NCBI GenBank assembly: GCA_044229975.1
Contig: JBGARZ010000013.1
Span: forward strand, 64,001-128,000
From: Polyangiales bacterium
GTDB taxonomy: Bacteria; Myxococcota_A; Polyangia; Polyangiales; Ga0077539
Direction of reading: 5' to 3'
Length of the DNA stretch: 64,000 nucleotides
How positions within the stretch are numbered: the first letter of the stretch is position 1; every line of letters begins with the position of its first letter. The notes below the pieces were generated by a model. It worked only from the letters and a program-made list of their open reading frames with translations, was not told where the DNA came from and did not search any database. Position numbers and translations under genes: made by a program. Shown here piece by piece: positions 42,575 through 60,828 of this stretch.

Positions 42575-43747
42575 TCAGGGCGTCTCGAAGCGCGCGCGCA
42601 CCCCGAGGGCCGCGCACCGCTCGCGAATCTCCTGCGCGTAGTTGCCGTTCATCACGAGCACGGTCACCTCGCCGCCGAGCGTCGCGAGCCACTCGGGCGC
42701 GTGGATGGCGTGCCCGCTGCCGGGGATGAAGCGTCCCTGCTTCTTGGGGTTCACGTCGACGCCGCCGCGCAGGAGGGTGCCGTCGGGGTCGACGAGGTTG
42801 GCGAACACCACCCCCTTGGTCGCCATGCCCCACAGCACGCACGGCCCTCCAGCGCCCGCCGCGCGCAGCCGCTCCCGCGCGCCGTCGATGCGCCGCTGCT
42901 CGTCGGCGGCGTAGCCCGCGAGGCGCGCCACGGCGTCGGCCCCGTCGAGCGCGGTCGCGTCCTCGTCCCCCGCCTCCCCTTCGGCCCACTGGTACTGGTC
43001 GCCAAACGCGGACCGCGCCGCCGTCAGCGCCACCCCGCCGCGCCGGAGCGCGTGCGCGAAGGTCGGGCGCGTGAAGTAGTTGCAGTGCTCGTAGCAGAAG
43101 TCCCAGAAGGCCCCCTGCGCGATGATCCATTCGAGGTCGGGCACCTCGAAGAACAGGGGCGTCCCGGGGTGTTCGCGCACGCCCGCTACCACCGCGCGGA
43201 TGAAGGGGACGGGCGCGGGGATGTGCTCGATGACGTGGCGGCAGACGACGAGCGACGGGCGCTCGCCCACCAGCTCGGAGCGGAACATCTCGCGCACGAG
43301 CTCGACGGGCCGCTCGGGCGTCGCCGCGCGCGGGGTGCAGCTCGGGTCGACGCCGACCCCGCGAGCGCCCGGAACCTCCGCGCAGAGCACGTCGAGGAAG
43401 GTCCCCTTGCCGCAGCCGACGTCATAGACGGGGGCGCGGGTGAGGTCGCGGGCTGCTGCGAGGTGGCGCGCGATGGAGCGGTAGTAGTCGGTGAAGACCG
43501 CGGACGGGACGTCGTTGTCGTAGCGCGGGTCGTAGACCATCAGCGCCGCGTCGAAGCGGGTGTTGAACGCGAACCCGCACCCGGCGCACACCCCGAGGGT
43601 GAAGGGCGCGCAGGGCGCCGCGAGGGCCTCCTCGCGCGACGGCCACACGAGGTTTTGCATGACGGGGAGGCGGTCGCGGTGGAGGACCGCGACGGGGTCG
43701 GGGCGGTCGCAGACCGGGCACCGCAGCGGGGACCCGGCCGTGGTCAC
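42575..43747 (-). CDS. SAM-dependent methyltransferase of the sugar C-methyltransferase-like type
   Basis: CPVC/CAGC zinc site, DVGCGKG, RHVIEH, YEHCNYF, DVNPKKQG. Confidence 0.85.
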   Translation of the reverse strand: MTTAGSPLRCPVCDRPDPVAVLHRDRLPVMQNLVWPSREEALAAPCAPFTLGVCAGCGFAFNTRFDAALMVYDPRYDNDVPSAVFTDYYRSIARHLAAARDLTRAPVYDVGCGKGTFLDVLCAEVPGARGVGVDPSCTPRAATPERPVELVREMFRSELVGERPSLVVCRHVIEHIPAPVPFIRAVVAGVREHPGTPLFFEVPDLEWIIAQGAFWDFCYEHCNYFTRPTFAHALRRGGVALTAARSAFGDQYQWAEGEAGDEDATALDGADAVARLAGYAADEQRRIDGARERLRAAGAGGPCVLWGMATKGVVFANLVDPDGTLLRGGVDVNPKKQGRFIPGSGHAIHAPEWLATLGGEVTVLVMNGNYAQEIRERCAALGVRARFETP

Positions 43748-44517
43748 GGGAGGCGCCGGAGCCAGGCGCCGGGCCAGTGGGTGATGTGCTCGCGCACCTC
43801 GCCCTCGTTGAAGACGAAGGGCGGCGGCTCGTCGATGACGAACTCGGGGTGGGCGTCGGCGAACTCGCGCGCCGCGGCGGTGGGGTTGTCGTCCTTCCAC
43901 TCGGGCTTGCCGCGGGGGACGTCATCGAGAAACTGCATGAGCCCGTCGGTGGCGACGATGTACGACCCGGCGGTGACCAGCGGGGCGTAGGCGGCGAGCT
44001 CGTCGGCGACGTGCTGCTTGGTGTGGTTGGAGTCGAGAAACACCAGCACCTTCTGGCCCGGCTTGATGAGCCCGCGCACGCGCTCGACGATGCTCGGGTC
44101 GGTGGAGCTGCCTTCGAGCAGGGTGATGGACGACGACAGCTCGTGGGCCTCGATGGCGGCGCGGTTGTGCGGGCGGATCTCGATGTCGACGCCGATGATG
44201 CGCCCCGGGTTGCCCATCATCTTGAGCAGGCTGGCGTTGTAGATGAGCGAGCCGCCGTGGGCGACGCCGGTCTCCACGATGACGTCGGGCTTCACGCGGT
44301 AGATGACCTCCTGCGCGCGAACCATGTCCTCGGGGAGCTGGATGATGGGGCGCCCCATCCAGGTGAACGAGTAGATGTGCTTGAGGGCCCAGCCGACCTG
44401 AATCCACACCCGCGAGATCGCCGAGAACGCCTCGCGGCTGTACAGCGGGAGCGAGCGGGCGCCGGTGGCATCCTCGCAGGCGACGGTTCTGGCTTCGGTG
44501 TCGATGGTCAGCTTCAT
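43744..44517 (-). CDS. CmcI (cephalosporin hydroxylase family) methyltransferase
   Basis: WMGRPIIQ, ETGVAHGGSL, EGSS, LDSNH. Confidence 0.92.
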   Translation of the reverse strand: MKLTIDTEARTVACEDATGARSLPLYSREAFSAISRVWIQVGWALKHIYSFTWMGRPIIQLPEDMVRAQEVIYRVKPDVIVETGVAHGGSLIYNASLLKMMGNPGRIIGVDIEIRPHNRAAIEAHELSSSITLLEGSSTDPSIVERVRGLIKPGQKVLVFLDSNHTKQHVADELAAYAPLVTAGSYIVATDGLMQFLDDVPRGKPEWKDDNPTAAAREFADAHPEFVIDEPPPFVFNEGEVREHITHWPGAWLRRLP

Positions 44518-44754
44518 GGGGGTATTGGGTGCTTCCTCGAAGGGCGTGGACGCTCTCGCACGGCGGCGCTCGTTGTCAACGCCGACGGCGGTCGCCGGGC
44601 GTCGATGGCAGCCATGCGTTGCGGCTCCGGGCGCGGGTCATTCACCATTGACTGCCGCGGGTGCTCGGGCATTGTCCGCCGCCGATGAATCCGGGCGCGC
44701 CGGCGCGCCACGGACCGCGAAGCGAACACCGCACGACGCCGGAGCGAGCAACCC

Positions 44755-45555
44755 ATGAAGGTCATCATCTTGTGCGGGGGCCAGGGCACCCGGATCCGCG
44801 ACGCCAACGAGCTCGTCCCCAAGCCCCTGCTCGCCATCGGCGACCGGCCGATGGTCTGGCACATCATGAAGTCGTACGCGACGCACGGCTTCACCGACTT
44901 CGTGCTCGCCCTCGGCTTCAAGGGCTGGCTCATCAAGGAGTACTTCCTCAACTACCGCTCGATGACGGCCGACCTGCGGGTCTCGCTCGGGCGCACCGAG
45001 GCCGTCGAGGTGCTCGACCGCCACGCCTCCGAGGACTGGTCGGTCACCCTCGCCGAGACGGGGGAACACACCATGACCGGCGGGCGCGTCGCGGCCCTCC
45101 GCCGCTACGTCGAAAACGACGACCTGTTCATGGTCACCTACGGCGACGGGGTGTCCGACGTCGACATCGGCAAGCTCGTGGCCTTCCACCGATCGCACGG
45201 CAAGGTCGCCACGGTGACGGCCGTGCACCCGCCGGGTCGCTTCGGCGAGCTGGGTATCCGCGACGGGCTCGTGCAGGAGTTCAACGAGAAGCCACAGACG
45301 ACCCTCGGGTTCATCAACGGGGGCTTCATGGTCTTCGACGCGAAGCGCGCGTGGGACTACATCCCGACGGGCAATCCCGGCCTCGTGCTGGAGGTCGAGC
45401 CGCTCCAGTCGCTGGCCAACGCGGGCGAGCTGGTCGCGTACGAGCACCACGGGTTCTGGCAGCCGATGGACACGCTGCGCGAGTACACCCAGCTCAACCA
45501 GCAGTGGGCCTCGGGCAACGCGCCGTGGAAGACCTGGGCCGACGACCCCCGCTGA
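44755..45555 (+). CDS. rfbF: Glucose-1-phosphate cytidylyltransferase
   Basis: LCGGQGTR, PKP, TMTGGR, TYGDG, GFWQPMDT. Confidence 0.95.
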   Translation: MKVIILCGGQGTRIRDANELVPKPLLAIGDRPMVWHIMKSYATHGFTDFVLALGFKGWLIKEYFLNYRSMTADLRVSLGRTEAVEVLDRHASEDWSVTLAETGEHTMTGGRVAALRRYVENDDLFMVTYGDGVSDVDIGKLVAFHRSHGKVATVTAVHPPGRFGELGIRDGLVQEFNEKPQTTLGFINGGFMVFDAKRAWDYIPTGNPGLVLEVEPLQSLANAGELVAYEHHGFWQPMDTLREYTQLNQQWASGNAPWKTWADDPR

Positions 45556-45598
45556 GGGCCTCGACGACCCCCTCCGACTACACCAACAGGATGTCCCC

Positions 45599-46831
45599 AT
45601 GACTGAAGGCCGAACGTTTCGCTGCTGGTCCTGCCAGGGCAACCGACTGACCCCGGTGCTCGACCTGGGGCGCACCCCGCTCGCCAACTCGCTCGTCCCC
45701 GAAGGCGCGCTGCACCACACCGACCCGACCTTCCCGTTGGAGCTGGCCTGGTGCGCCGACTGCTCCCTCGTGCAGATCACCGACTCGGTGCCGCCCGAAG
45801 ACCTCTTCCGCGACTACCTCTATTTCTCGTCCTACTCCGACACCATGCTCCTGCACGCGGAGTCGCTCGTCGAGCGCATGATCCGCGAGCGCTCCCTCGA
45901 CCCGCACTCGCTCGTCGTCGAGGTCGCCAGCAACGACGGCTACCTGTTGAAGTTCTACAAGCGCGCCGGGGTGCAGGTGCTCGGCGTCGAGCCCGCGGTC
46001 AACGTCGCCAAGGTCGCCGTCGAAGAGCACGGCATCCCGACCGTCACCGAGTTCTTCGGCGACGACCTCGCGGGTCGGCTGCGGTCCGAGGGGCGGCGCG
46101 CGTCGGTGATGCACGCCAACAACGTGCTGGCCCACGTGCCCGACCTCAACGGCTTCGTGCGCGGCTTCAAGACCCTGCTCGCCGACGACGGCGTGGCCAT
46201 CTTCGAGGCGCCGTACGTGCGCGACATGGTCGAGGGCGTGGCCTTCGACACGATCTACCACGAGCACCTCTGCTACTACTCGCTGACGGCCCTCGACGCG
46301 CTCTTCCGCCGCAACGGGCTGGTCATCGCGCACGTCGAGCGGCTCGCCATCCACGGCGGCTCGCTGCGCATCTTCGCCACGCACAACGAGACGCCCGACG
46401 AGACGGTGACGTCGATGCTCGCCGACGAGCACGCCCTCGGCATCGACGGCCTCGCGTACTACGAGGTCTTCGCGCGGCGGGTGCAGCACCTGCGGGTCAC
46501 GCTCACCGGGCTCCTGCGCGACCTGAAGGCCGCCGGGCGCACCATCGCGGCGTACGGCGCCAGCGCCAAGGGCAGCACGCTGCTCAACGCCTTCGGCATC
46601 GGCCGTGAGGTGCTCGACTTCGTGGTCGACCGATCGCCCCACAAGCAGGGGCTCTACACCGCCGGCACGCACATCCCCATCCGCGCGCCGGAGGCTCTCG
46701 TCAGCGCGCGCCCCGACTACGCGCTCCTGCTCACCTGGAACTTCGCCGACGAGATCCTCGCCCAGCAGGAGGAGTACCGCGCGGGGGGTGGTCGCTTCAT
46801 CGTTCCGGTGCCGCAGGTGCGGGTGCTGTGA
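45599..46831 (+). CDS. NDP-hexose C-methyltransferase
   Basis: CxxC pairs, EVASNDG, NNVLAH, FDTIYHEH, HGGSLR, YGASAKG, WNF. Confidence 0.92.
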   Translation: MTEGRTFRCWSCQGNRLTPVLDLGRTPLANSLVPEGALHHTDPTFPLELAWCADCSLVQITDSVPPEDLFRDYLYFSSYSDTMLLHAESLVERMIRERSLDPHSLVVEVASNDGYLLKFYKRAGVQVLGVEPAVNVAKVAVEEHGIPTVTEFFGDDLAGRLRSEGRRASVMHANNVLAHVPDLNGFVRGFKTLLADDGVAIFEAPYVRDMVEGVAFDTIYHEHLCYYSLTALDALFRRNGLVIAHVERLAIHGGSLRIFATHNETPDETVTSMLADEHALGIDGLAYYEVFARRVQHLRVTLTGLLRDLKAAGRTIAAYGASAKGSTLLNAFGIGREVLDFVVDRSPHKQGLYTAGTHIPIRAPEALVSARPDYALLLTWNFADEILAQQEEYRAGGGRFIVPVPQVRVL

Positions 46832-47358
46832 GGTTCACCGAGACGCCCATCCGCGGCGCGTGGGTGGTCGACCTCGAACGCATCGAGGACGAGCGAGGGT
46901 TCTTCGCGCGGACGTGGTGCGCGAAGGAGTTCGCCGAGCACGGGATGCACGCCCAGCTCGCGCAGTGCTCGGTGTCCTTCAACACCAAGAAGAACACCCT
47001 CCGCGGGATGCACTTCCAGAGGGCCCCGCACGAGGAGGCCAAGCTGGTGAGCTGCCCCCGCGGTCGCATCTGGGACGTGGTGCTCGACCTGCGGCGCGAC
47101 TCGGAGACGTTCTGCCGGTGGCACGGCGTCGAGCTGTCGCCGGAGAATTACCGGGCGTTGTATGTTCCGCCGGGGTGCGCGCACGGGATGGTGACGCTGG
47201 AGGACGACACGCTCGTCGCCTACCAGATCTCCGTCGCGTACGTGGCGGGTCACCAGGCCGCGGTGCGCTGGGACGACCCCGCGTTTGGCATCACCTGGCC
47301 GACGACGTCGCCGATTCTGTCCGAGCGCGACCGATCGCTGCCGGACTTCGTTCGATGA
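46828..47358 (+). CDS. rfbC: NDP-4-keto-6-deoxyhexose 3,5-epimerase (RmlC family)
   Basis: DERGFF, LRGMHFQ, DVVLDLR, P.GCAHG, WDDP. Confidence 0.93.
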   Translation: MRFTETPIRGAWVVDLERIEDERGFFARTWCAKEFAEHGMHAQLAQCSVSFNTKKNTLRGMHFQRAPHEEAKLVSCPRGRIWDVVLDLRRDSETFCRWHGVELSPENYRALYVPPGCAHGMVTLEDDTLVAYQISVAYVAGHQAAVRWDDPAFGITWPTTSPILSERDRSLPDFVR

Positions 47359-48266
47359 AGGTGCTGGTCACCGGAGCCGCGGGCTTCGTCGGCTCGCAGG
47401 TCGTGCGACAGCTCGTGGCGGGCGGCGACGAGGTGGTGGCGCTCTTCCGCCCGGGCGAGTCCACCGCGCGTGTCACCGACGTACTGCCGCGGCTCACGGC
47501 GCGCGACATCGACCTCGCCGACCACGCCGCGCTCGCTGCGATGGTGGCCGCCGAGCGCCCCGCCGCGTGCCTCCACACCGCCTGGAACGCCGAGCCCGGC
47601 AAGTACCTCCACTCGCGCGAAAACCTGCGACTGGTGGAGGCGTCGCACCGCCTCGCGGAGGCGCTCGCCGACCACGGGTGCGCGCGCTTCGTGGGCGTCG
47701 GGACCAACGCCGAGTACGACACCAGCTACGGCTACCTCTCCGAGCGAACACCCACGGCACCGGGGTACCTGTACTCGGCGTGCAAGCTGGGTCTCTCGCA
47801 CTCGCTCGCGCAGCTCGGGTTGCTCACCGGGATGCAGGTCGCGTGGGCGCGGTTGTTCTATCTGTACGGGCCGTGGGAAGACCCGCGGCGGCTGGTGTCG
47901 TCGGTGGCGCGCGCGCTCTTGGAGGGGCGCGAGGCGCCGTGCAGCGAGGGCTCGCAGGTGCGGGACTTCCTGCACGTGGCCGACGTCGCGGGCGCGCTGG
48001 TGGCGGTGCTGCGCTCGGGGCTGACGGGTGCGGTCAACGTGGGGTCGGGCGAGCCGGTGACGGTGCGCGAGGTGGTCACGCGGCTGGGTGCCATCATCGG
48101 GCGCCCGGAGCTGCTGCGGCCGGGCGTGATCGCGGTGAAGGCGGGTGAACCGCCGTTTGTGTGCGCCGACAATGGCAAGCTGAGGGCCGAGACCGGGTGG
48201 GCGCCTACGTTCACGCTGGAGCGCGGACTGACCGACACCGTGGACTGGTGGCGCGCACGAGGCTGA
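47355..48266 (+). CDS. NAD-dependent epimerase/dehydratase family (NDP-sugar 4-reductase-like)
   Basis: TGAAGFVG, GTNAEY, YSACK, YGP, RDFLHV. Confidence 0.9.
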   Translation: MKVLVTGAAGFVGSQVVRQLVAGGDEVVALFRPGESTARVTDVLPRLTARDIDLADHAALAAMVAAERPAACLHTAWNAEPGKYLHSRENLRLVEASHRLAEALADHGCARFVGVGTNAEYDTSYGYLSERTPTAPGYLYSACKLGLSHSLAQLGLLTGMQVAWARLFYLYGPWEDPRRLVSSVARALLEGREAPCSEGSQVRDFLHVADVAGALVAVLRSGLTGAVNVGSGEPVTVREVVTRLGAIIGRPELLRPGVIAVKAGEPPFVCADNGKLRAETGWAPTFTLERGLTDTVDWWRARG

Positions 48267-49840: not shown

Positions 49841-51322
49841 CTACGAGGTGCGGCGGGTGCGCTTCTTCGCGGCGACACGCACGCGCGTGGTGGGGGCGTT
49901 CTTCCAGAGGCGCTCGTAGGCGCGGAAGGTCTCTGCCGGTCGACGGAGCGGATGGCTCACACGGTAGAGCTCATCGAAGATCACGTCGGCGACGAGAGCG
50001 GGCTCGGCGTTCCAGAGGCGAGCGCGGCCGAAGGTCAGCGCGATGGGACCCATGTCGCCCCGAAGCACCAGGAGCAGGTCAGAGGCCCAGCATTCGAGGC
50101 CCAGGAGATAGGCGCTCTCGGGGTCGTCGACGTCGACGCGGCGGAAGACGCACGCGGACGGCACGTACTCGAACACATGCCGGCGCGCCCCGTCGCGGAG
50201 CGCAAACGCAAAGGTCGGCCGGCGCCCCTCGGACTCGCCCGCCATCATGGAATAGAGGTACCGAAAAAGCGGACCGCCCACCAGCGCGCAGGCGAGCTCA
50301 TGGAGTCCTTCTTCGATGCGCCGGAGGTCACCGCGGCCGAGCGCAGGTGCTCCGCTCGCGGGTGCAAAATCCGGGAGCGGGCCGAGGTGGGCTGGCTCGC
50401 GCGAAGGCCAGACGTCGCGCGGCTCGGTCGCGAGAAAGTCGGTCGACGCGTCGACGCGCACGAGCCGATGGCCCTCCATCCAGAACGTCTGCCCAGGGAG
50501 TGTGGAGACGAACTTCTCGCGCGGATGGGCGCGCTCGAGCAATGCGCAGGCGCGATCGCAGTCGATGGGAAACACGCGCCGATTGAGCCACGCCCGCTCG
50601 CCGTAGAACGAGAACCCGCCCGCGCACAGCAGCGTCGCGGCGGGCCGTCCCCACGTCGCGCGAACGAGCTCGCGACCGACCCCCATCCGCGCCGCGCACG
50701 CCTCCGTGCTGCCGCTCATCTCGTCGACGAAGTCGGTCATGTGACTCCAGTCGAGGGCGTTGTTGGTCCAGGTGACCAGCCCCGGCTTCGCGAGCACGCC
50801 CTTGGCGAGGAGGAGGTGACGCTCGGTCGGTGTGATGTCGACCATCGAGAAGAAACTCCCGGCGCCGCCCGCGTCGCGCACGAGCAGCGGGAGCGTGTCC
50901 CATTCGTCGCCGCAGTCGACGTTCACGTGATCTCCGGCCAGCGGGATGACCTCCAGATCGTCGAAGGTGACGGGCACCCCAGGCTCGAGCGGCACCACCC
51001 GGAACCCCATCTCGCGAAGGATGCGGTGCGCGGCGCTCGACGAGCGGGCGGACAGATGGACGGGGATCTTGCGGCTCAGCCGGGCGAGGGACGGAATGTC
51101 GAAATGGTCGTCGTGCTCGTGCGTGAGCACCACCGCATCCAGCGCGGGGAAGCGTGCGAGGTCGAGCCGCCGGGGCGGAAACACCCGGTACTCGAGCGCA
51201 TGCTGCGCGCCGAAGTGCTCGCACAGCAGCGGGTCGACCGCGACGCACGCGCGATCGGAGCGAAAGAGCCAACCCTGATGACCGAGAAACGTGACGGCGA
51301 ACACGGGCGCGCATGGTGCCAC
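49841..51322 (-). CDS. MBL-fold metallo-hydrolase with C-terminal extension
   Basis: FLGHQGW, VDPLL, THEHDDHFD; start approximate. Confidence 0.82.
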   Translation of the reverse strand: MAPCAPVFAVTFLGHQGWLFRSDRACVAVDPLLCEHFGAQHALEYRVFPPRRLDLARFPALDAVVLTHEHDDHFDIPSLARLSRKIPVHLSARSSSAAHRILREMGFRVVPLEPGVPVTFDDLEVIPLAGDHVNVDCGDEWDTLPLLVRDAGGAGSFFSMVDITPTERHLLLAKGVLAKPGLVTWTNNALDWSHMTDFVDEMSGSTEACAARMGVGRELVRATWGRPAATLLCAGGFSFYGERAWLNRRVFPIDCDRACALLERAHPREKFVSTLPGQTFWMEGHRLVRVDASTDFLATEPRDVWPSREPAHLGPLPDFAPASGAPALGRGDLRRIEEGLHELACALVGGPLFRYLYSMMAGESEGRRPTFAFALRDGARRHVFEYVPSACVFRRVDVDDPESAYLLGLECWASDLLLVLRGDMGPIALTFGRARLWNAEPALVADVIFDELYRVSHPLRRPAETFRAYERLWKNAPTTRVRVAAKKRTRRTS

Positions 51323-51389
51323 GAACCGTCGCGCGCGGTTCGAGGGGAGTGCCTTCACCTCGATGGGCTCCTTGGTAATTTCACGTCCT

Positions 51390-51869
51390 GTGAGCCTGAA
51401 CCTCAAGACCGAGACCGAGCGTGTGGTCGACGTCCTCCAGCGAGCCGAGGTCGACTTTGCGATCTGCGGCGGCATCGCGGTCACGATGCATGGCGCGCCC
51501 CGGTTCACCCGCCACATCGACCTGTTGATTCGTGCGGAGGACGAGCCGCGAGCCATCGTCGCCGTCGCGCGAGCGGGCTTCGACCTCCCCGCCGATCCGA
51601 TGGTGTTCGATGCAAGCGGCCCCCTCGAAGGTCGCATCCTTCGGGTCTCCAAGGCGGAGGGCTCCGACCTCCTCACGCTCGCCCTCATCGTCGCGTCGCC
51701 CAGCTTCGAGGACGTGTGGAGCACGCGGGTGTTGGTCGAGTGGGAAGGTCGAAGGGTTCCGGTCGTGTCGGTCGAAGGACTGATCCCGATGAAGCGCGTC
51801 GCGGGTCGCCCGCAGGACCTCGTCGACATCGACAACCTGTCCGCACTGACCGCGACACCGGAGGAGTGA
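51390..51869 (+). CDS. Minimal nucleotidyltransferase-fold protein (TA-type) with altered catalytic motif
   Basis: CGGIAV..HG.PRFTRHIDLL and MKRVAGRPQDLVDI. Confidence 0.78.
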   Translation: MSLNLKTETERVVDVLQRAEVDFAICGGIAVTMHGAPRFTRHIDLLIRAEDEPRAIVAVARAGFDLPADPMVFDASGPLEGRILRVSKAEGSDLLTLALIVASPSFEDVWSTRVLVEWEGRRVPVVSVEGLIPMKRVAGRPQDLVDIDNLSALTATPEE

Positions 51870-51871
51870 CC

Positions 51872-52045
51872 ATGGCATCGCGCACCGTCGACATGTCCCC
51901 GGCGGCGATCTCGCGACGCCTCGAAGAGCTCGCCCAGCTCTACGAGATGGCCCGCTCGCTCAAGCGCGCACGGGTGATCGGTCCGCTGCGGTCGGCCGTC
52001 GCGGAGGCCGCTCCTGCGCTCGCAGCGGAGGACGAGACGACGTGA
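51872..52045 (+). CDS. Small helical partner protein of the nucleotidyltransferase
   Basis: MASRTVDMSPAAISRRLEELAQLY; GGAGGAG RBS. Confidence 0.65.
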   Translation: MASRTVDMSPAAISRRLEELAQLYEMARSLKRARVIGPLRSAVAEAAPALAAEDETT

Positions 52046-52052
52046 CCGCGGA

Positions 52053-52175
52053 CGCCCAGACTGCGAAGTTCACCCGCAAGCGGGCGACCTCGAGCTCATG
52101 CTCATAGGAGATCCAACGGGGGAGGCTTGCGAGCACAGATCCACCGGAGGTTACAGATCGCCCAGACCGCGAAGT
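52053..52175. repeat. 17-bp direct repeat CGCCCAGACYGCGAAGT (52053-52069 and 52159-52175)
   Basis: 16 of 17 positions identical. Confidence 0.75.
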
Positions 52176-52234
52176 GCCCCTCTCCGTGACGTGCGGCGGG
52201 AGCTCTACGCGCAGTCGTTGGAGAGCTCGCTGGC

Positions 52235-52502: not shown

Positions 52503-52551
52503 GCCGTCGAACGCAACCCGCGGGGGGAGAGCGGGGGAAGCATCGACGCGC

Positions 52552-52965
52552 TCAGCGAACCGCGGCCCCGTAGCGCTCGACGATCTCCTGCGCGAGGCGA
52601 CGCAGCAGCGCGCCGCCTCCGGTGTTCAGGTGCAGCTCCAGTCCGGGGATGAGCACCACGCGCTCCCACGCCTCTCCCGCGAAGGTCGCGACGGGCGGCG
52701 CGGTGGTCGCGGGGACGACCGGCGCGGGGACCTCGGCCGCCAGCCGCTGACGGATCTTCCCGAGCGAGAGGTGTTGATCGCGCAGCTTCACGATGGCCAG
52801 GAGGCGTTCGCGGTGCCCCGCCGGGTAGCGTGTCGCCGGGCCGCGTCGCTCGGGCGGGGCGATGACGCCCGCGTGCGTCCACCGGCGCAGGGTGCGGCGA
52901 GAGACGCCGGTCCCCTTCACCAGCTCATCGAAGCTCAGCGTCGGCGGCGGGACAGCGGCGGTCAT
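52552..52965 (-). CDS. Small MerR-family HTH protein
   Basis: ELVKGTGVSRRTLRRW...GVIAPP...RY...LSLGKIR; C-terminal WERVVLIPGLELHL. Confidence 0.87.
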   Translation of the reverse strand: MTAAVPPPTLSFDELVKGTGVSRRTLRRWTHAGVIAPPERRGPATRYPAGHRERLLAIVKLRDQHLSLGKIRQRLAAEVPAPVVPATTAPPVATFAGEAWERVVLIPGLELHLNTGGGALLRRLAQEIVERYGAAVR

Positions 52966-52984
52966 CGGGCGATGTCACCCGGAG

Positions 52985-53211
52985 GGGGCAATCGAGGTCA
53001 ACCCTTGAGATTGCGAGGCCAAGGGAGAGCCTATCAAGGACAACCATGCGGCTAGCGACGTCGTTCGGAAGCCTATTTAGGACAAGCACAACGATCGCAC
53101 CGTCGCTTTCGAGGCTATTCAGGTCACCAAGCAGGATACCGAAGGTACAAATGGAGCCCATCCAGGTCACACATGGCCTTCCGGTGGACATTCTCGAAGC
53201 AATCGAGGTCG
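52985..53211. repeat. Six-copy array of a 16-bp motif (approx. RRRSCHATYNAGGWCR) at 42-43-bp period with non-identical spacers
   Basis: Copies start at 52985, 53027, 53069, 53111, 53154, 53196. Confidence 0.85.
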
Positions 53212-54850: not shown

Positions 54851-55021
54851 GGGCTGGCCTGTCGAAGGTGTGCGCGACGCCAGGACGAGGCAGAGGCACT
54901 CGGACGTCCCGCCCGCTCTCTCTTCGCTTCGTCGCCGATGAGGGCGTGTCGTTGACGCCTACGCCCACTCCCAACTGGCGTGTCGCCGCCGCCGGGTGCA
55001 TCGTCCCCGTCGCCGCCCGCG

Positions 55022-56995
55022 ATGCCTGACGCTGCCGCAGATCTCGCCGTCCTCGCCGTCGCCGCCCGCCGCGTCCGCTGGCAACGCGCCCTGCACACCG
55101 CCGCGGCCCTCAGCCCCGTCGCGCTCACCGCCTCCGTCGCGCTGGTGCTGCTCACCCGCCTCCGCGTGCTCCACCTCGCGCACCCGGTCGCCATCGCCCT
55201 CGCGCCCGCCGCGCTTCCGCTGGTCGGCGCGCTCGTCCACGCGCTCCTCCGGGTGTCTCCGCTCGACGCCGCGCGGCGGCTCGACGCCCACCATCAGCTC
55301 CACGATCGCCTCGGCATCGCGTGGCAGTTTCGCCAGCAGCCCACCGACTCGCGAACGCCCTTCATGCAGGCCGCCATCGACGACGCCGTCACGCACGCTC
55401 GCGGCGTCGACGTCCGGGCCGCGCTCCCGTGGCGCGTCCCCGGTGAGCTGAGTGTGGTCGCCGCGCTCGTGGTGCTGCTGGTGCTCGTCGCGCGGGTCCC
55501 CGTCCCCTCACGAACGCCACCGCGAGCCGCGCGCCCTGCTCCGACGACCTTCGCGCGAGACGCGGCCGAGCTCCACGACGACGACCTCGCCGCCTTCCGC
55601 GAGGCCGCGCGTCAGCTCGAAGCGCAGGCCCGCACCGACGACGCACGGCGCGGCGTCGAGCAGTTCAACCGGCTCCTCGACGACCTCGCGCATCGGCGAC
55701 TCGACCGCGACGAGGCCTTCCGTCGCCTCGCCGCGTTGCAGGAGTCGCTCACCGCGCAGGACGCCGCGGCGGGGCAACGGGTGACCGAGGCGCTGCGCAC
55801 GCTCGGCGACGAGATGAACCCCCGTGACGCCGCCACGCGACGGCTCACCGAGGCGCTGCGACGAGGCGACGCGGGCGCGGCCTCCGAGGCGATGCGCGAG
55901 CTCGCGCAGTCCGCGCGCGAGGGGACCATGACCCCGCAGCAGCGGCAGCAGACGGCGCAGGCGCTCCAGCGGGCGGCCGAGGCGCAGCCCGACACCGAGG
56001 CGCTGCGACGGCAGGTCGAGCAGGCGCGGCGCGAGGTGGAGGAGATGCTCCGTCAGCAGCGGGAGCGCGCGCTCAACCAGCAGGAGGAGTCGCTGCTGCG
56101 ACGGCGACAGCGCGAGGCCGAGCGGCTCACGGGCGAGCAGCAGCGCCGGGAAGAACAACGGCGCGAGGCCGAGCACCTGCAACGCGAGCTCAACCAGGCG
56201 GCGCAGGACCTCGCGCGCGACCTGCAGCAGGCAGGCGTCGACCTCCAGCGCGGCGCCGAGGAACTCTCACGGATGCACGACGAGCAGCAGTCGCAGCGCT
56301 CGACCGAGGAGCTTCGCCAGCAGCTCGAACAGCTCCGCGAGCTGATGCGCCAGCAGCGCGGTCAGGGCGGGCAGCAGCAGCGCATGCGGCTCCAACAGTT
56401 TTCGCGCAACGCCGGCGGCCAACGCGGGCAACAGGGACGCGGGCAGCAGGGACAGGGACAGGCGGGACAAGGGCAACCGCAGCCCGGGCAGGGTCAGTCG
56501 GGGCAGCCCGGGCAACAGGGACAGGGAGTCGGAGAAGGGCAGGGCCAGCCGGGAGCGGGGCAGCCTGGGCAACAGGGCAACGGTCCGCCGCAGGGCCTGG
56601 CCCTCGGTGCGGGCGGGAGCGGCGGTGTCGCGCTGCCAGTACCAAGTGCGGGTGGCAACCAACCGGGAGGCAGCCAACCCGGCGGCGAGGGTCGCGACCC
56701 CGGTGGGCAGGGCGCGGGTGCACAGCACGACGAGAACCTCCGCGGCGCGGCCATCGACCCGCTGTCACGCACGCAGGCGGTGCAGGTGCAGGGGCAGCAG
56801 ACGGGCAACGGGCCGTCGCGCTCGCAGGTGATTCGCACGGCGGCGGGGTCGGGCTTCGCGAGCCGTCCATACCAGCAGGTGTATTCGCCGTACTGGGATC
56901 GGGCGCGCGAGGTGTTGCACCAGGGCGAGGTTCCGCCGGGGTTTCGGTCTTATGTAAGAAGGTATTTCCAGCTCATCCGACCGAGGGAGGAATGA
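55022..56995 (+). CDS. Membrane-anchored coiled-coil protein with Gly/Gln-rich tail (MoxR-cluster associated)
   Basis: N-terminal TMs, LHDRL, long coiled coil, ends VPPGFRSYVRRYF. Confidence 0.8.
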   Translation: MPDAAADLAVLAVAARRVRWQRALHTAAALSPVALTASVALVLLTRLRVLHLAHPVAIALAPAALPLVGALVHALLRVSPLDAARRLDAHHQLHDRLGIAWQFRQQPTDSRTPFMQAAIDDAVTHARGVDVRAALPWRVPGELSVVAALVVLLVLVARVPVPSRTPPRAARPAPTTFARDAAELHDDDLAAFREAARQLEAQARTDDARRGVEQFNRLLDDLAHRRLDRDEAFRRLAALQESLTAQDAAAGQRVTEALRTLGDEMNPRDAATRRLTEALRRGDAGAASEAMRELAQSAREGTMTPQQRQQTAQALQRAAEAQPDTEALRRQVEQARREVEEMLRQQRERALNQQEESLLRRRQREAERLTGEQQRREEQRREAEHLQRELNQAAQDLARDLQQAGVDLQRGAEELSRMHDEQQSQRSTEELRQQLEQLRELMRQQRGQGGQQQRMRLQQFSRNAGGQRGQQGRGQQGQGQAGQGQPQPGQGQSGQPGQQGQGVGEGQGQPGAGQPGQQGNGPPQGLALGAGGSGGVALPVPSAGGNQPGGSQPGGEGRDPGGQGAGAQHDENLRGAAIDPLSRTQAVQVQGQQTGNGPSRSQVIRTAAGSGFASRPYQQVYSPYWDRAREVLHQGEVPPGFRSYVRRYFQLIRPREE

Positions 56996-58006
56996 ATGGC
57001 GTCGAAGGCTGAGGGGACCGCGGCTCCGAAGGAGTCCGTCGAGCGCTTCCGGAAGGACCTCGCGGCGGTGCGGTTGGAGGTGGGCCGCGTGATCGTCGGG
57101 CACCAGTCCGTCGTTGATGGCGTGCTCACGTGCCTGCTCGCGGGCGGTCACGCGCTGCTGGAGGGCGTCCCCGGCCTGGGCAAGACGATGCTCGTCCGAA
57201 CGCTCGGCCGCGCGCTCGACCTACAGTTTGCGCGAGTGCAGTTCACGCCCGACCTGATGCCCTCGGACATCCTCGGCACGCAGATGATCGCGGAGGACGA
57301 GAAGGGCGCCAAGCGCTTCGAGTTTCAGCGCGGGCCCATCTTCGCCAACCTCGTGCTCGCCGACGAGATCAACCGCGCGACCCCGAAGACCCAGAGCGCG
57401 CTGCTCGAAGCGATGCAGGAGCAGTCGGTCACCATCGCGCGCAAGACCCACGCGCTCGACCAGCCCTTCTTCGTGCTCGCCACGCAAAACCCGCTGGAGA
57501 TGGAGGGCACCTACCCGCTACCCGAGGCGCAGCTCGATCGCTTCTTCTTCAAGCTCAACGTGCCGTTTCCCAAGCGCGACGACCTGCACGCCATCCTCGA
57601 TCGCACGACGGGTGGCGACGAAGCCGCCGTGAAGCCCGTGCTCGACCGCGCGCGCATCCTGGAGCTGCGGGCGCTCACCAGGGAGGTTCCGGTCGCGCGC
57701 TCGGTGCAGGACTACGCCATTCGCCTGGTGCTCGCGACGCACCCCGATCAGGAGGGCGCGACGGCGTCGGTGAAGCGCTACGTCCGCTTCGGCGCGTCGC
57801 CGCGTGGGGCGCAGGCGATACTCCTGGCGGCGAAGATTCGCGCGGTGATGGACGGCCGCTTCAGCGCGAGCGCCGACGACGTGAAGGCGAGCGCGCCGCC
57901 GGCACTGCGACACCGGATGATCCTGAACTTCGAGGGCGAGGCCGAGGGTGTGCGTCCCGATGCGGTGCTCGAAGAGATCCTCGGGTCGGTGAAGCCGGGG
58001 GCATAA
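56996..58006 (+). CDS. moxR: MoxR family AAA+ ATPase
   Basis: EGVPGLGKT, QFTPDLMPSD, ADEINRA, ATQNP, PEAQLDRF. Confidence 0.96.
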   Translation: MASKAEGTAAPKESVERFRKDLAAVRLEVGRVIVGHQSVVDGVLTCLLAGGHALLEGVPGLGKTMLVRTLGRALDLQFARVQFTPDLMPSDILGTQMIAEDEKGAKRFEFQRGPIFANLVLADEINRATPKTQSALLEAMQEQSVTIARKTHALDQPFFVLATQNPLEMEGTYPLPEAQLDRFFFKLNVPFPKRDDLHAILDRTTGGDEAAVKPVLDRARILELRALTREVPVARSVQDYAIRLVLATHPDQEGATASVKRYVRFGASPRGAQAILLAAKIRAVMDGRFSASADDVKASAPPALRHRMILNFEGEAEGVRPDAVLEEILGSVKPGA

Positions 58007-58009
58007 CGC

Positions 58010-58936
58010 GTGGGCTGGCTCGACTGGCTGCGCGCGCCGAAGACCGTCGCGGTGACGGAGGACGAGCTCTTCGACGCCGACTTCCAACGGCGTCTGGAGT
58101 ACCTCGCGGTGGCGTCGCGGCGGCTCTTCGCGGGTCGCATCAAGGCCGAGCGCCGCACGCGCATCGCGGGCAGCGGCATCGAGTTCGCGGACCATCGGGC
58201 GTACACGCCGGGCGACGACCTGCGCGCGCTCGACTGGAGCGTCTACGGCCGCACCGAACGCCTTCTGGTGAAGCGCTTCGAGGAGGAGGAAGACCTCACC
58301 ATCGCCATCGTCCTCGACGTGTCGGGATCCATGGCCTTCGGCGATCGGGCGCGCTTCGACCACGCGCGGAGATTGGCGGCAGCGATGGCCTACGTGGCGC
58401 TGTCCAATCTCGATCGGGTGGCGATGGTGGCGGTGTCGACGAAGATCGAGCGGCGCATGGCCCCGGCGCGCGGCAAGGGACAGATCTTCAAGGTGTTCGA
58501 GTTTCTGCGGGGGTTGAAGCCGGGCGGGGAGACGGCGCTCGCCGAAGCGGGTCGCACGCTGGGTGCGGAGCTGAAGCGCCGCGGCGTGGCCATCGTGGTG
58601 AGCGACCTCTACGACCCGGCGGGCTTCGAGCGCGGGCTCAACGCGCTGCGGTACCAGAAGTTCGAGCCGATGGTGATCCACGTGACCGACGCGCGGGACG
58701 CCGACCCGGGCGCGCGCGGCGACGTGCTGCTGGTCGACGCGGAGTCGGGCGAAGGCCGCGAGGTGACGCTGACGCCCGCGCTGGTGGCGAAGTTTCGCGA
58801 CGCGCACGCGCAGTGGGGACGCGAGGTAGAGGGCTTCTGCAAGGCGCGTCGCGTGGCCTACGCGCGGGCTGAAGTGGGCGGAGCGCTCGAAGACCAGGTG
58901 CTGAATCTGTTCCGCCGATCGGGGCTGGTGGAGTGA
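58010..58936 (+). CDS. DUF58 domain protein
   Basis: GSGIEFADHRAYTPGDDLR.LDW, DVSGSM. Confidence 0.93.
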   Translation: MGWLDWLRAPKTVAVTEDELFDADFQRRLEYLAVASRRLFAGRIKAERRTRIAGSGIEFADHRAYTPGDDLRALDWSVYGRTERLLVKRFEEEEDLTIAIVLDVSGSMAFGDRARFDHARRLAAAMAYVALSNLDRVAMVAVSTKIERRMAPARGKGQIFKVFEFLRGLKPGGETALAEAGRTLGAELKRRGVAIVVSDLYDPAGFERGLNALRYQKFEPMVIHVTDARDADPGARGDVLLVDAESGEGREVTLTPALVAKFRDAHAQWGREVEGFCKARRVAYARAEVGGALEDQVLNLFRRSGLVE

Positions 58937-60828
58937 TGGAGTGGCTGGGCCTCGCGCCGTCGCAGCTCGCGTGGGCGGGCGCGCTCGCGGGCCTCGCGGT
59001 GGTGGCGCTGTACCTCCTCAAGCAGCGTCGTCGGCGGGTGCTGGTTCCCTTCGCGCCGCTGTGGACGCGCGTCATCGAGGAGCGCCCGAGCGCGAAGCTC
59101 TTCGAGCGTCTGCGTCGGCTGCTCTCGCTCCTCCTGCAACTGGTGCTGCTGGCGCTGCTGGTGGTGGCGCTGGGTGATCCGCGGCCCGCGGGGGCGTCGC
59201 GGCGCGGGCGCACGACGGTGCTGCTGCTCGATGCGAGCGCGAGCCTGTCGGCGACGGACGTCCCCGGGGGGAGGGCGACGGCGGCGCGCGAGGCGGCGCG
59301 GCGCATCGTTCGCGCGATGGGCCCCGACGACCGGATGCTGGTGGCCCAGATGGACGCCGAGGTGACGGCGCTCACGCCCGTGACCGACGACCTCGCGGCG
59401 CTGGAGGCGGCGGTGTCGTCGTACCGGCCGCGCGACACGGGCGTCGACCTCCCGCGGGCGCTCCGCTTCGCGCGCGACGTGCTGCGTGGAGATGCCCACG
59501 GCGAGGTGATCGTGGTGGGCGACGGGGCGTACCCCGCGATGGCGGGAGAGAGCCCGCTGGGCGCGCTGCCGCTGCGCTTCGTGGGCGTCGGTCGTCGCGG
59601 GCGCAACCTCGGGCTGACGGCGTTTTCGGCGCGGCGCTATCCGCTCGATCGGTCGCGCTGCGAGGCGATGGTCGAGCTCCAGAGCTGGAGCGATCGGGCC
59701 GAGTCGGTGGTGCTGACGGTGAGCGTCGACGGCGCGCCCATCGAGCGCGCTCGCTTGCGGGTGGCGCCGGGCGAGCGCGTGCAGCGGGTCATCGAGCGGC
59801 TGTCGGGCGGCGGCGAACGCCTGGAAGCGCGCATCACCCTGGAGGACGGGACGCGCGACGACCTCCCGGTGGACGACGTGGCCTACGCGACGCTGCCGGA
59901 GAGACGGCGCGCGCGGGTGTTGTCGGTGGGCAACGGCAACCGCTACCTGGAGGCGGCGCTGCTGCTCGACGAGTACCTGGAGGTGGTCGACGCGACGTCC
60001 GAGCGGGCGGGCGCGGCGCTGGCGCAGGGTCACTTCGACGTGGTCATCAGCGATGGGGTCGCGGTGGAGGTTCCGCCGGGGGTGGGCTGGATCTCGCTGC
60101 GACCGCCCGAAGGAGGCTCGCCGCGACCGGTGGAGGCGGGCTTCGCGACGGCGCCCGCGGGGGGAGCGCTGGGCTTCGAGCGGGTCGATCGGAGGCACCC
60201 GGTGACGCGCTTCACCAGCGACCTCGAAGAGGCCCACATCGGTCGCATCGCGCGCTACCGCCTCGACGCGCGCGACCGGGTGCTGGGCGCGAGCGCGGCG
60301 GGTCCGCTGCTGGTGGCGGGCGAGCGGGAGGGGGCGCGCTTCGTGATGTTCACGTTTGATGTGCGCGAGAGCGACGTGCCGCTGCTGGTGTCGTGGCCGG
60401 TGCTGCTCATCAACGCGATCGACTGGTTTTCCGGGGAAGACGGAGCGTTTCAGTCGTCGTACCGGACGGGCACGGCGTGGCGGATGCCGGTTCCTGCGGG
60501 TGAGTCGGAGGCGACGGTGGAGACGCCGTCGGGGCGGCGCGTGCGGGTGCCAGTGGTGGAGGGGCGCGCGGTGTTCTTCGGGACGGAGGCGGGCTTCCAT
60601 CGGCTGCACGCGGGTGAGTCGCACACGCTGGTCGCGGGCAACCTGATGGACCCGGACGAGTCCGCGTGCGCGCCGCGGGCGACGCTGGCGGTGGGCACGA
60701 CGCGCGCGACGGCGCCGCTGCCGGGGAGGCCGGGGTTGCGGCGCGAGTGGTGGGCGGCGCTGCTGGCGGTGGCGGCGCTCATCGTGGTGGCCGAGTGGGC
60801 CACGTGGCATCGACGGGTGACGGTGTAG
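58933..60828 (+). CDS. BatA N-terminal + VWA domain membrane protein
   Basis: ALYLLK, LLLQL, LDASASL, C-terminal TM with AEW. Confidence 0.88.
   Translation: MMEWLGLAPSQLAWAGALAGLAVVALYLLKQRRRRVLVPFAPLWTRVIEERPSAKLFERLRRLLSLLLQLVLLALLVVALGDPRPAGASRRGRTTVLLLDASASLSATDVPGGRATAAREAARRIVRAMGPDDRMLVAQMDAEVTALTPVTDDLAALEAAVSSYRPRDTGVDLPRALRFARDVLRGDAHGEVIVVGDGAYPAMAGESPLGALPLRFVGVGRRGRNLGLTAFSARRYPLDRSRCEAMVELQSWSDRAESVVLTVSVDGAPIERARLRVAPGERVQRVIERLSGGGERLEARITLEDGTRDDLPVDDVAYATLPERRRARVLSVGNGNRYLEAALLLDEYLEVVDATSERAGAALAQGHFDVVISDGVAVEVPPGVGWISLRPPEGGSPRPVEAGFATAPAGGALGFERVDRRHPVTRFTSDLEEAHIGRIARYRLDARDRVLGASAAGPLLVAGEREGARFVMFTFDVRESDVPLLVSWPVLLINAIDWFSGEDGAFQSSYRTGTAWRMPVPAGESEATVETPSGRRVRVPVVEGRAVFFGTEAGFHRLHAGESHTLVAGNLMDPDESACAPRATLAVGTTRATAPLPGRPGLRREWWAALLAVAALIVVAEWATWHRRVTV

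Follow-up and report, generated by a model that had tools for sequence, protein, structure and literature searches.

A small MerR-like gene in a Polyangiales bacterium is preceded by six degenerate 16-bp repeats at steps of 42 or 43 bp, and gene and repeats recur together at a second, otherwise unrelated place in the same genome. The reading we favour, at a little better than even confidence, is that the array is a row of sites on double-stranded DNA read by the adjacent MerR-like protein, which would cover some 230 bp of DNA and probably act as a repressor at its own promoter; we reach it by comparing sequences. The array is very probably non-coding. The window in which it lies, that is, the whole stretch of DNA that was analysed, comprises 64,000 nucleotides, and the features of the locus are as follows.

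52545..53211, minus strand: whole cassette (array and gene), the sole stretch in common with a second copy at G000:C20:207165-207828
52552..52965, minus strand: stand-alone MerR-like gene, 137 aa (ORF, Pfam, AlphaFold)
52735..52932, minus strand: MerR-type winged helix-turn-helix (HTH), residues 12-77 (Pfam, AlphaFold), with a predicted recognition helix at about residues 23-32
52570..52668, minus strand: C-terminal beta-hairpin and helix, residues 100-132, common to VIT-vWA-coupled relatives
52972..53001, minus strand: possible weak promoter, TTGACC (52996-53001), 18 nt, TGACAT (52972-52977), overlapping repeat 1 and ending 6 nt from the ATG
52985..53000, plus strand: repeat 1 (gene-proximal) of the six-site chain
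53027..53042, plus strand: repeat 2 of the six-site chain
53069..53084, plus strand: repeat 3 of the six-site chain
53111..53126, plus strand: repeat 4 of the six-site chain
53154..53169, plus strand: repeat 5 of the six-site chain (after the 43-bp step)
53196..53211, plus strand: repeat 6 (distal) of the six-site chain
53012..53190, plus strand: span of five weak echo half-sites of 10 nt each, at 53012, 53054, 53096, 53138 and 53181 (4-7 of 10 matches)

The earlier note on this DNA had reported six motifs, and each of them is found exactly once, at the starts listed above and hence with steps of 42, 42, 42, 43 and 42 bp. When the best chain of six 16-mers is scored by its column-majority matches, the locus obtains 78 of 96, compared with 53.7 +/- 1.7 (maximum 59) in 150 shuffles in two-base blocks. 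Exact-seed repeat finding reported pairs of repeats and missed the array itself. The composition given in the note, about 55% GC, agrees with the 55.5% computed over 52985-53211; the host genome of about 10 Mb has about 71% GC, and most of its contigs lie at 67-73%. An echo of the motif at +21, also claimed there, is present though weak, with 7, 7, 4, 6 and 5 of 10 core bases matching. At lag 42 the autocorrelation of the array is 0.47, at lag 21 it is 0.35, and shoulders appear at lags 9 and 12. Public run X3, which may derive from the source sample, contains a 151-nt contig identical to 52963-53113.

The gene had been called MerR-like from its letters, and Pfam concurs: residues 12-77 match MerR_1 at E 9e-12 (45.4 bits against a cut-off of 21.6). 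The AlphaFold model consists of a winged HTH, a linker of low confidence that follows helix 68-78, and a beta-beta-alpha C-terminal domain made of a hairpin and one 15-residue helix; it contains neither the long antiparallel coiled-coil dimerisation helix nor the effector domain of canonical MerR proteins. Foldseek assigns it a probability of 1.0 to PbrR, CadR, CarH and RacA, at E values of only about 1e-3, and the fold matches include PDB entries 5i44 (RacA) and 5c8d/5c8e and 2jml (CarH/CarA). The HTH match to RppC is weak (E 0.21). Compared with the HTH of its paralogue, that of the present gene has a dN/dS of 0.023 over 66 codons, which indicates purifying selection; in five other stand-alone paralogue pairs the ratio ranges from 0 to 0.40. 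The C-terminal domain is conserved across all aligned members. No clear match to its fold was found (Foldseek best E 3.1; VIA-align best Z 3.1 among 48,161 chains), Pfam and NCBIfam returned nothing under E 0.03 for 65 members, and its atlas score of 0.87 is to unnamed clusters. A two-copy prediction for this domain scored 0.28, against a mark of 0.42. The domain may resemble the tail of IS66 TnpA. Those homologues that carry a name are from the Polyangiaceae.

As the note had said, a -35-like TTGACC box stands on the minus strand 30 nt before the ATG and overlaps the proximal repeat, but a sigma-70 scan calls no promoter, and a promoter and terminator scan of the locus found none. By analogy with the TTGACA promoter of the relatives described below, TTGACC and TGACAT form a possible promoter. 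Overlap of the promoter by the array is clear only in the clade of this locus.

The second copy, on contig C20, encodes a protein of 91% amino acid identity and has six repeats of its own, at steps of 43, 42, 43, 42 and 42 bp. The flanks of the two copies are unrelated, and the homology between them extends only to the last repeat at one end and to about 7 nt beyond the stop codon at the other; in other paralogue pairs the boundary likewise falls at or just past the end of the gene, at +6, +14 and 0 nt. Judged from these alignments, gene and array move as a unit, and they likely form a cassette whose protein is predicted to bind the array beside it. Between the copies, identity is 48/60 in the cores, 22/50 in the echoes and 35/70 in the linkers, while 14 of 56 synonymous sites have changed. 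The spacers, described in the note as largely unrelated, are less so between the copies than that description implies, with 46-62% identity at the same position versus 44% at other positions.

A chain of three motif sites occurs at these two places only in 10 Mb. We considered a trans regulon in the host genome and reject it, as motif chains are confined to the two gene copies; a two-site match at C32:189751 falls inside a kinase gene. By inspection no integrase-like ORF was recognised beside either copy, a pattern search found no relatives in viral contigs, and plasmid relatives come down to one HTH-only match.

Several neighbouring features of the window may be recorded here. At 51291-52045, just downstream of the cassette, a small nucleotidyltransferase-like gene (weak AbiEii/DUF6036 matches) is followed by a 57-aa ORF, which together look like a toxin-antitoxin-type pair. 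In the gap between these and the cassette (52053-52180), a 22-nt sequence is directly repeated at a distance of 106 bp and a 14-nt sequence is repeated at a distance of 28 bp. At 54980-60828, inspection of the translations reveals, consecutively, a long helical, Gln-Gly-rich protein, a MoxR-type AAA ATPase and two vWA-like genes. A nucleotide-sugar cluster, with cytidylyltransferase-, C-methyltransferase-, epimerase- and reductase-like ORFs by inspection, occupies 43744-48266.

Loci of the family were gathered from 61 relatives, from 401 genomes of the order and from a genome collection, with most of the listed matches taken in. After duplicate proteins had been collapsed to 94 rows and two outgroups with a different C-terminus (L031 and L032) dropped, 92 loci were retained; L105-L108 and L146-L166 fall outside these tallies. 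An array was called wherever upstream periodicity at lags 41-43 reached a z of at least 5. The note had suggested looking for periodic arrays upstream of homologues, and there they are: an array precedes 41 of the 59 stand-alone loci and none of the 33 loci with a VIT-vWA gene directly downstream, a contrast that is essentially one evolutionary split and therefore not 92 independent tests. The same periodicity, sought downstream as a control, appears in 0/59 stand-alone and 1/33 VIT-vWA-coupled loci. The other 18 stand-alone loci fall below the cut-off; a wider window rescues two of 17 testable negatives, but it also passes one of the 33 operon loci. A 401-genome sample of the phylum gave seven matches outside the order, all with a short operator of the TGTC/GACA type and none (0/7) with an array. 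Among three metagenome loci with upstream sequence, one has a strong array, one a weak array and one none. The tree of the family was built by a quick method and is weakly rooted at its base. Inspection of predicted genes yielded no recurring neighbour of the stand-alone loci, whose neighbours vary at random. At L009 a 65-66-bp direct/inverted element, a REP-like hairpin, stands in the array's place.

The VIT-vWA-coupled loci constitute a sister class that shares both protein domains with the stand-alone members, as well as half-sites 20-21 bp apart over the promoter. It differs in having a conserved recognition helix and operator, translational coupling and a wider range across the phylum, and in having no 42-bp array. 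All 33 coupled loci carry the same recognition helix, and the TTGACA box of their operator is accompanied by TGTC at about -7 and +13 and by GACA at +2; that is, TGTC half-sites 20-21 bp apart lie over the -35 box, with an inverted GACA inside the TTGACA box. It is plausible that this operator is the short ancestor of the long array. The host genome itself contains a member of this class at G000:C33:342880-345851 (L003, L119), which with 32 related loci forms a conserved MerR-like/VIT-vWA operon with a clear TTGACA promoter. Our search of the literature found no published account of such a MerR-like/VIT-vWA gene pair.

The period of the arrays is narrowly fixed. A tally that admitted only steps of 41-44 bp comprises 200 steps over 41 arrays: 109 of 42 bp, 68 of 43, 15 of 41 and 8 of 44, with a mean of 42.34 bp, or four turns of 10.59 bp. 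In an open census of lags 38-47, steps of 39 and 45 each account for about 1.5%. At least one step other than 42 occurs in 34 of the 41 arrays, and several consist of pure 41- or 43-bp units. The pooled autocorrelation excess over the 41 arrays is 0.15 at lag 42, 0.024 at lag 21 and about 0.01 or less at lags 9-12.

The sequence of the repeats, by comparison, is free to change. A matrix built from the 12 cores of the host genome (both copies) finds at least three sites in only 6 of 95 upstream regions, namely those of the two source loci, of L045 and of three Sorangium loci (L033-L035). These six loci form one clade (SH-aLRT 84), even though L045 has only 44% HTH identity and bears its five sites on the opposite strand. 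Members of a second clade have the core CCGTCCAT in common, in either orientation and sometimes in both. More generally, the best motif partner of an array is found among its three closest HTHs in 12 of 35 cases, where 3.1 are expected, and the strand is flipped in five of the nine most similar motif pairs. Divergent paralogues within one genome never exceed a motif similarity of 1 (0/12 pairs; mean 0.15 versus a background of 0.16), whereas closer proteins in different genomes do so in 8 of 48 pairs (mean 0.44). In these comparisons of sequence the motif thus follows the protein clade and not the host genome. Motif and protein similarity correlate weakly over the whole set (rho 0.13, p 0.009), and restricting the comparison to the recognition helix does not raise the coefficient (rho 0.08), so co-descent could explain much of the link.

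Some members of the family depart from the simple arrangement. In the clade of L142, L145, L147 and L144 the array is bipartite: its two direct-repeat arms are separated by a gap and run in opposite directions. An intact gene is missing beside two arrays that have a clade motif: that of L144 precedes an ORF that is Uma2-like by eye, and that of L145 precedes what appears to be a decayed gene start. Of the three cassettes in Sorangium sp. So ce1014, two (L034:1-2900 and L035:368-2950) lie about 1 kb from the ends of long CRISPR arrays of 34-38 repeats with a period of about 73; the two loci have about 4.4 kb in common, and the adjacency is therefore probably one event.

The host genome also contains about ten or more further intergenic arrays with a 21-, 42- or 43-bp period and unrelated sequence, at these positions:

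C20:424540, C20:258520, C28:43300, C28:41720, C26:69260 and C10:138140 (among L109-L117, L120 and L121): further arrays
C20:42380, C11:600620, C25:174560, C13:148620, C11:645340 and C32:712880 (among L109-L117, L120 and L121): further arrays

Most of them lie upstream of lone genes of 230-280 aa without an HTH or a Pfam match; the rest include one upstream of a subtilase gene. One array-bearing lone gene is DUF6261-like (atlas score 0.96; the family is found on 14-32% of cluster members, and the recognition value is below the mark). Another belongs to a 238-aa family without a Pfam match (G000:C10:137446-138162; relatives L176-L183), whose members have upstream arrays of about 43 bp with different sequences; the arrays are visible in four of the seven relatives with upstream sequence displayed and weak in a fifth.

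In the reading that we favour, strong sites would recur along each array at intervals of four helical turns, with a weak site midway between them. The MerR-like protein would bind the cores on one face of the helix and oligomerise along about 230 bp, with cooperativity perhaps contributed by the C-terminal domain on its flexible linker, and it may repress its own gene through the proximal repeat, which overlaps the TTGACC box. The stand-alone copies would descend from VIT-vWA-coupled relatives that lost the operon; their operator would have grown to 4-10 units, and protein and motif would have diversified into many matching pairs. The earlier note had proposed a nucleoprotein filament platform of this kind, and the recurrent arrays of fixed period, the motif that tracks the clade and the strand flips all lend it weight, with binding itself a prediction. 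A more ambitious version, which we hold to be rather improbable, sees the cassettes as orthogonal, mobile addresses, in which a one-sided filament would form on the protein's own array while the C-terminal domain tethers or recruits a partner. One candidate for that partner would be the VIT-vWA protein encoded by the ancestral operon, and the whole would work like a miniature RacA or sopC system.

The most serious competitor, although an unlikely one, is that the 42/43-bp array is a general cis-element serving a host factor or DNA geometry, with the MerR-like gene as one passenger. A nucleoid protein, an activator or a silencer would, on that account, use such arrays before several unrelated families of lone genes. 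The further arrays of the same period and other sequence in this genome, most of them before lone non-HTH genes, are what one would expect of such an element; so are the arrays kept by relatives of the 238-aa family, and those without a gene. A shared reader, however, should make arrays alike within a genome, and none of the 12 same-genome pairs is alike. The motif chain of this locus is confined to two loci, and across families the motif follows the protein clade. That arrays within one genome differ in motif favours each family reading its own array over one host factor. Quite unlikely, in turn, is the possibility that the array is a fast-turning minisatellite, renewed by unit duplication and conversion, which hitch-hikes without any reader and whose motif similarity reflects mere co-descent. 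Near-perfect tandem copies do occur in L033, L034, L101 and L103, the linkers of the two copies differ more (35/70) than do synonymous sites (14/56 changed), and gene-less remnants exist. Nevertheless, the unit stays at 41-44 bp while its sequence is wholly replaced, cores are kept better than linkers (48/60 versus 35/70), arrays lie upstream and in 0/59 cases downstream, and the motif persists where protein identity is only 44% and where the strand has flipped.

The note had also entertained a transcribed array, processed into RNAs of about 42 nt. Such repeat-spacer RNAs would guide or load the protein in the manner of TIGR or CRISPR systems; this we consider very unlikely. It could accommodate the fixed unit length and the fast-changing spacers, and the inverted arms in L142, L145 and L147 could pair as RNA. 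The most direct counter-evidence is that the strand flips among relatives, and a fixed period, a clade-tracking motif and strand flips together favour sites on double-stranded DNA over a processed RNA. Moreover, folding equals that of shuffles on both strands (z -0.95 and -0.88), Rfam gives three matches at E 0.79-4.7 with none in the array, no terminator is found, and many units are near-identical duplicates, which would not supply varied guides. Nor does the proposed search of the spacers reveal a target: the best self-match in the genome is 16 nt (E 0.026), and 50,697 phage records gave only E 0.9. The note was right that no Nop gene is nearby, since PF01798 was not found in the 93%-complete genome (a control matched in four archaea), and right about cas genes, as cas1 lies on another contig, C11. 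Least credible of all, to the point that we give it almost no weight, is a decayed plus-strand gene for a protein of 14-residue repeats. The cores can be read as E-P/A-I-E/Q-V and the Sorangium units as heptads, variation in the cores is third-position-like, and the shoulders at lags 9 and 12 have been mentioned. Yet most arrays (34 of 41) include steps that differ from 42, several being built of pure 41- or 43-bp units, and steps of 39 or 45 are very rare; in both copies, every one of the six frames has a negative codon score; and strand is not conserved. The non-42 steps and the codon score lead us to reject the E-P-I-E-V reading of the cores as a gene, and with the strand flips they largely refute a 14-aa-repeat coding sequence, against which the note had already argued.

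In several uncharacterised families of bacterial genes, the genes are preceded by arrays whose period is fixed at 21 or 42 bp and whose sequence is free. The array described here comes with a protein of recognisable DNA-binding fold, which provides a handle on the wider class of 42-bp arrays. The system also has a built-in control in the sister class, which lacks arrays and in which both the recognition helix and the short operator are conserved, and it includes dozens of naturally occurring protein-motif pairs. If each protein is indeed the private reader of its array, the family would be a natural library of compact, orthogonal repressor-operator pairs, as well as a case of a regulator that escaped its operon and diversified as a mobile cassette. 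If the address reading were true, the widespread and unexplained 21/42-bp arrays, which are also found before DUF6261-like genes, would have their first identified reader; a further prediction is that DUF6261-like proteins read their own arrays too.

Among known systems, CarH and CarA, which occur in myxobacteria among others, are repressors whose MerR-like HTH binds direct repeats over their own promoter; the repeats of CarH are about 11 bp apart. By Pfam the present protein differs in having no cobalamin-binding domain. CRISPR arrays differ in having near-identical repeats, unique spacers, a period of 60-79 nt and cas genes, compared with degenerate 16-bp repeats at a period of 42 here, and Rfam finds no CRISPR match in the array. 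TIGR-Tas loci are alike in that a short array of alternating two-part units stands beside a lone small gene and the repeat sequences vary between loci; as described in PMC12045711, their units are 36 nt long with box C/D motifs, they have a Nop-domain protein and a terminator, and their strand is fixed; none of these features is seen here. Our search found no published description of a MerR-like gene paired with a 42-bp array. A survey of periodic intergenic arrays (bioRxiv 10.64898/2026.10.21.760802) lists periods of 5, 7, 8, 10, 18 and 60-79 nt, and the accessible portion of its main text makes no mention of MerR or DUF6261; its supplements and cluster database may hold such arrays.

Further parallels come from proteins that occupy several sites. 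BldC of Streptomyces (PMC5859096) is likewise a small protein with a MerR-like winged HTH and no canonical coiled coil; it binds cooperatively to series of imperfect direct repeats, which may face either way relative to the gene. It consists, however, of an HTH alone (68 aa), recognises adjoining 9-bp AATT-N4-C repeats and controls a regulon, whereas here a linker and a conserved C-terminal domain follow the HTH, the repeats recur every 42-43 bp and are echoed at 21 bp, the motif varies by clade and a regulon was not found in the host genome. Neither an HTH alone nor adjoining repeats at one helical turn, the marks of the BldC family, are thus present. The note had drawn this analogy, and it holds for the small MerR-like HTH; it is a loose one, because the period is 42/21 bp in place of adjoining 9-bp repeats and because of the extra conserved C-terminal domain. 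RacA of Bacillus subtilis (PMC4914108) shares a MerR-like winged HTH, a disordered linker and a C-terminal domain, and it coats DNA from specific sites. Its C-terminal domain is a coiled coil that binds DivIVA and its sites are dispersed and GC-rich, in contrast to the beta-hairpin and helix of the present protein and its one phased array beside the gene. In unit length the array resembles the F-plasmid centromere sopC, with 12 units of 43 bp in which the SopB sites are 16-bp inverted repeats (PMC2910045). Common to both systems are units of about 43 bp, a short core contacted (here, by prediction) by protein, unread linkers and an adjoining gene for an HTH protein, and SopB too has its DNA-binding domain flexibly tied to a small beta/alpha dimer domain. 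The tandem units of about 43 bp with a short conserved core that characterise type Ia centromeres are found here, with steps of 41-44 and a mean of 42.3; the ParB-family binder and adjacent ParA ATPase are not. SopB belongs to the ParB family, has the ATPase SopA as its partner and is plasmid-borne, while the present system is MerR-like and chromosomal, with no linked ATPase, mostly direct cores and degenerate units. Our verdict is that the array and its gene represent an undescribed variant of the phased multi-site operators, of a BldC-, CarH- or sopC-like kind.
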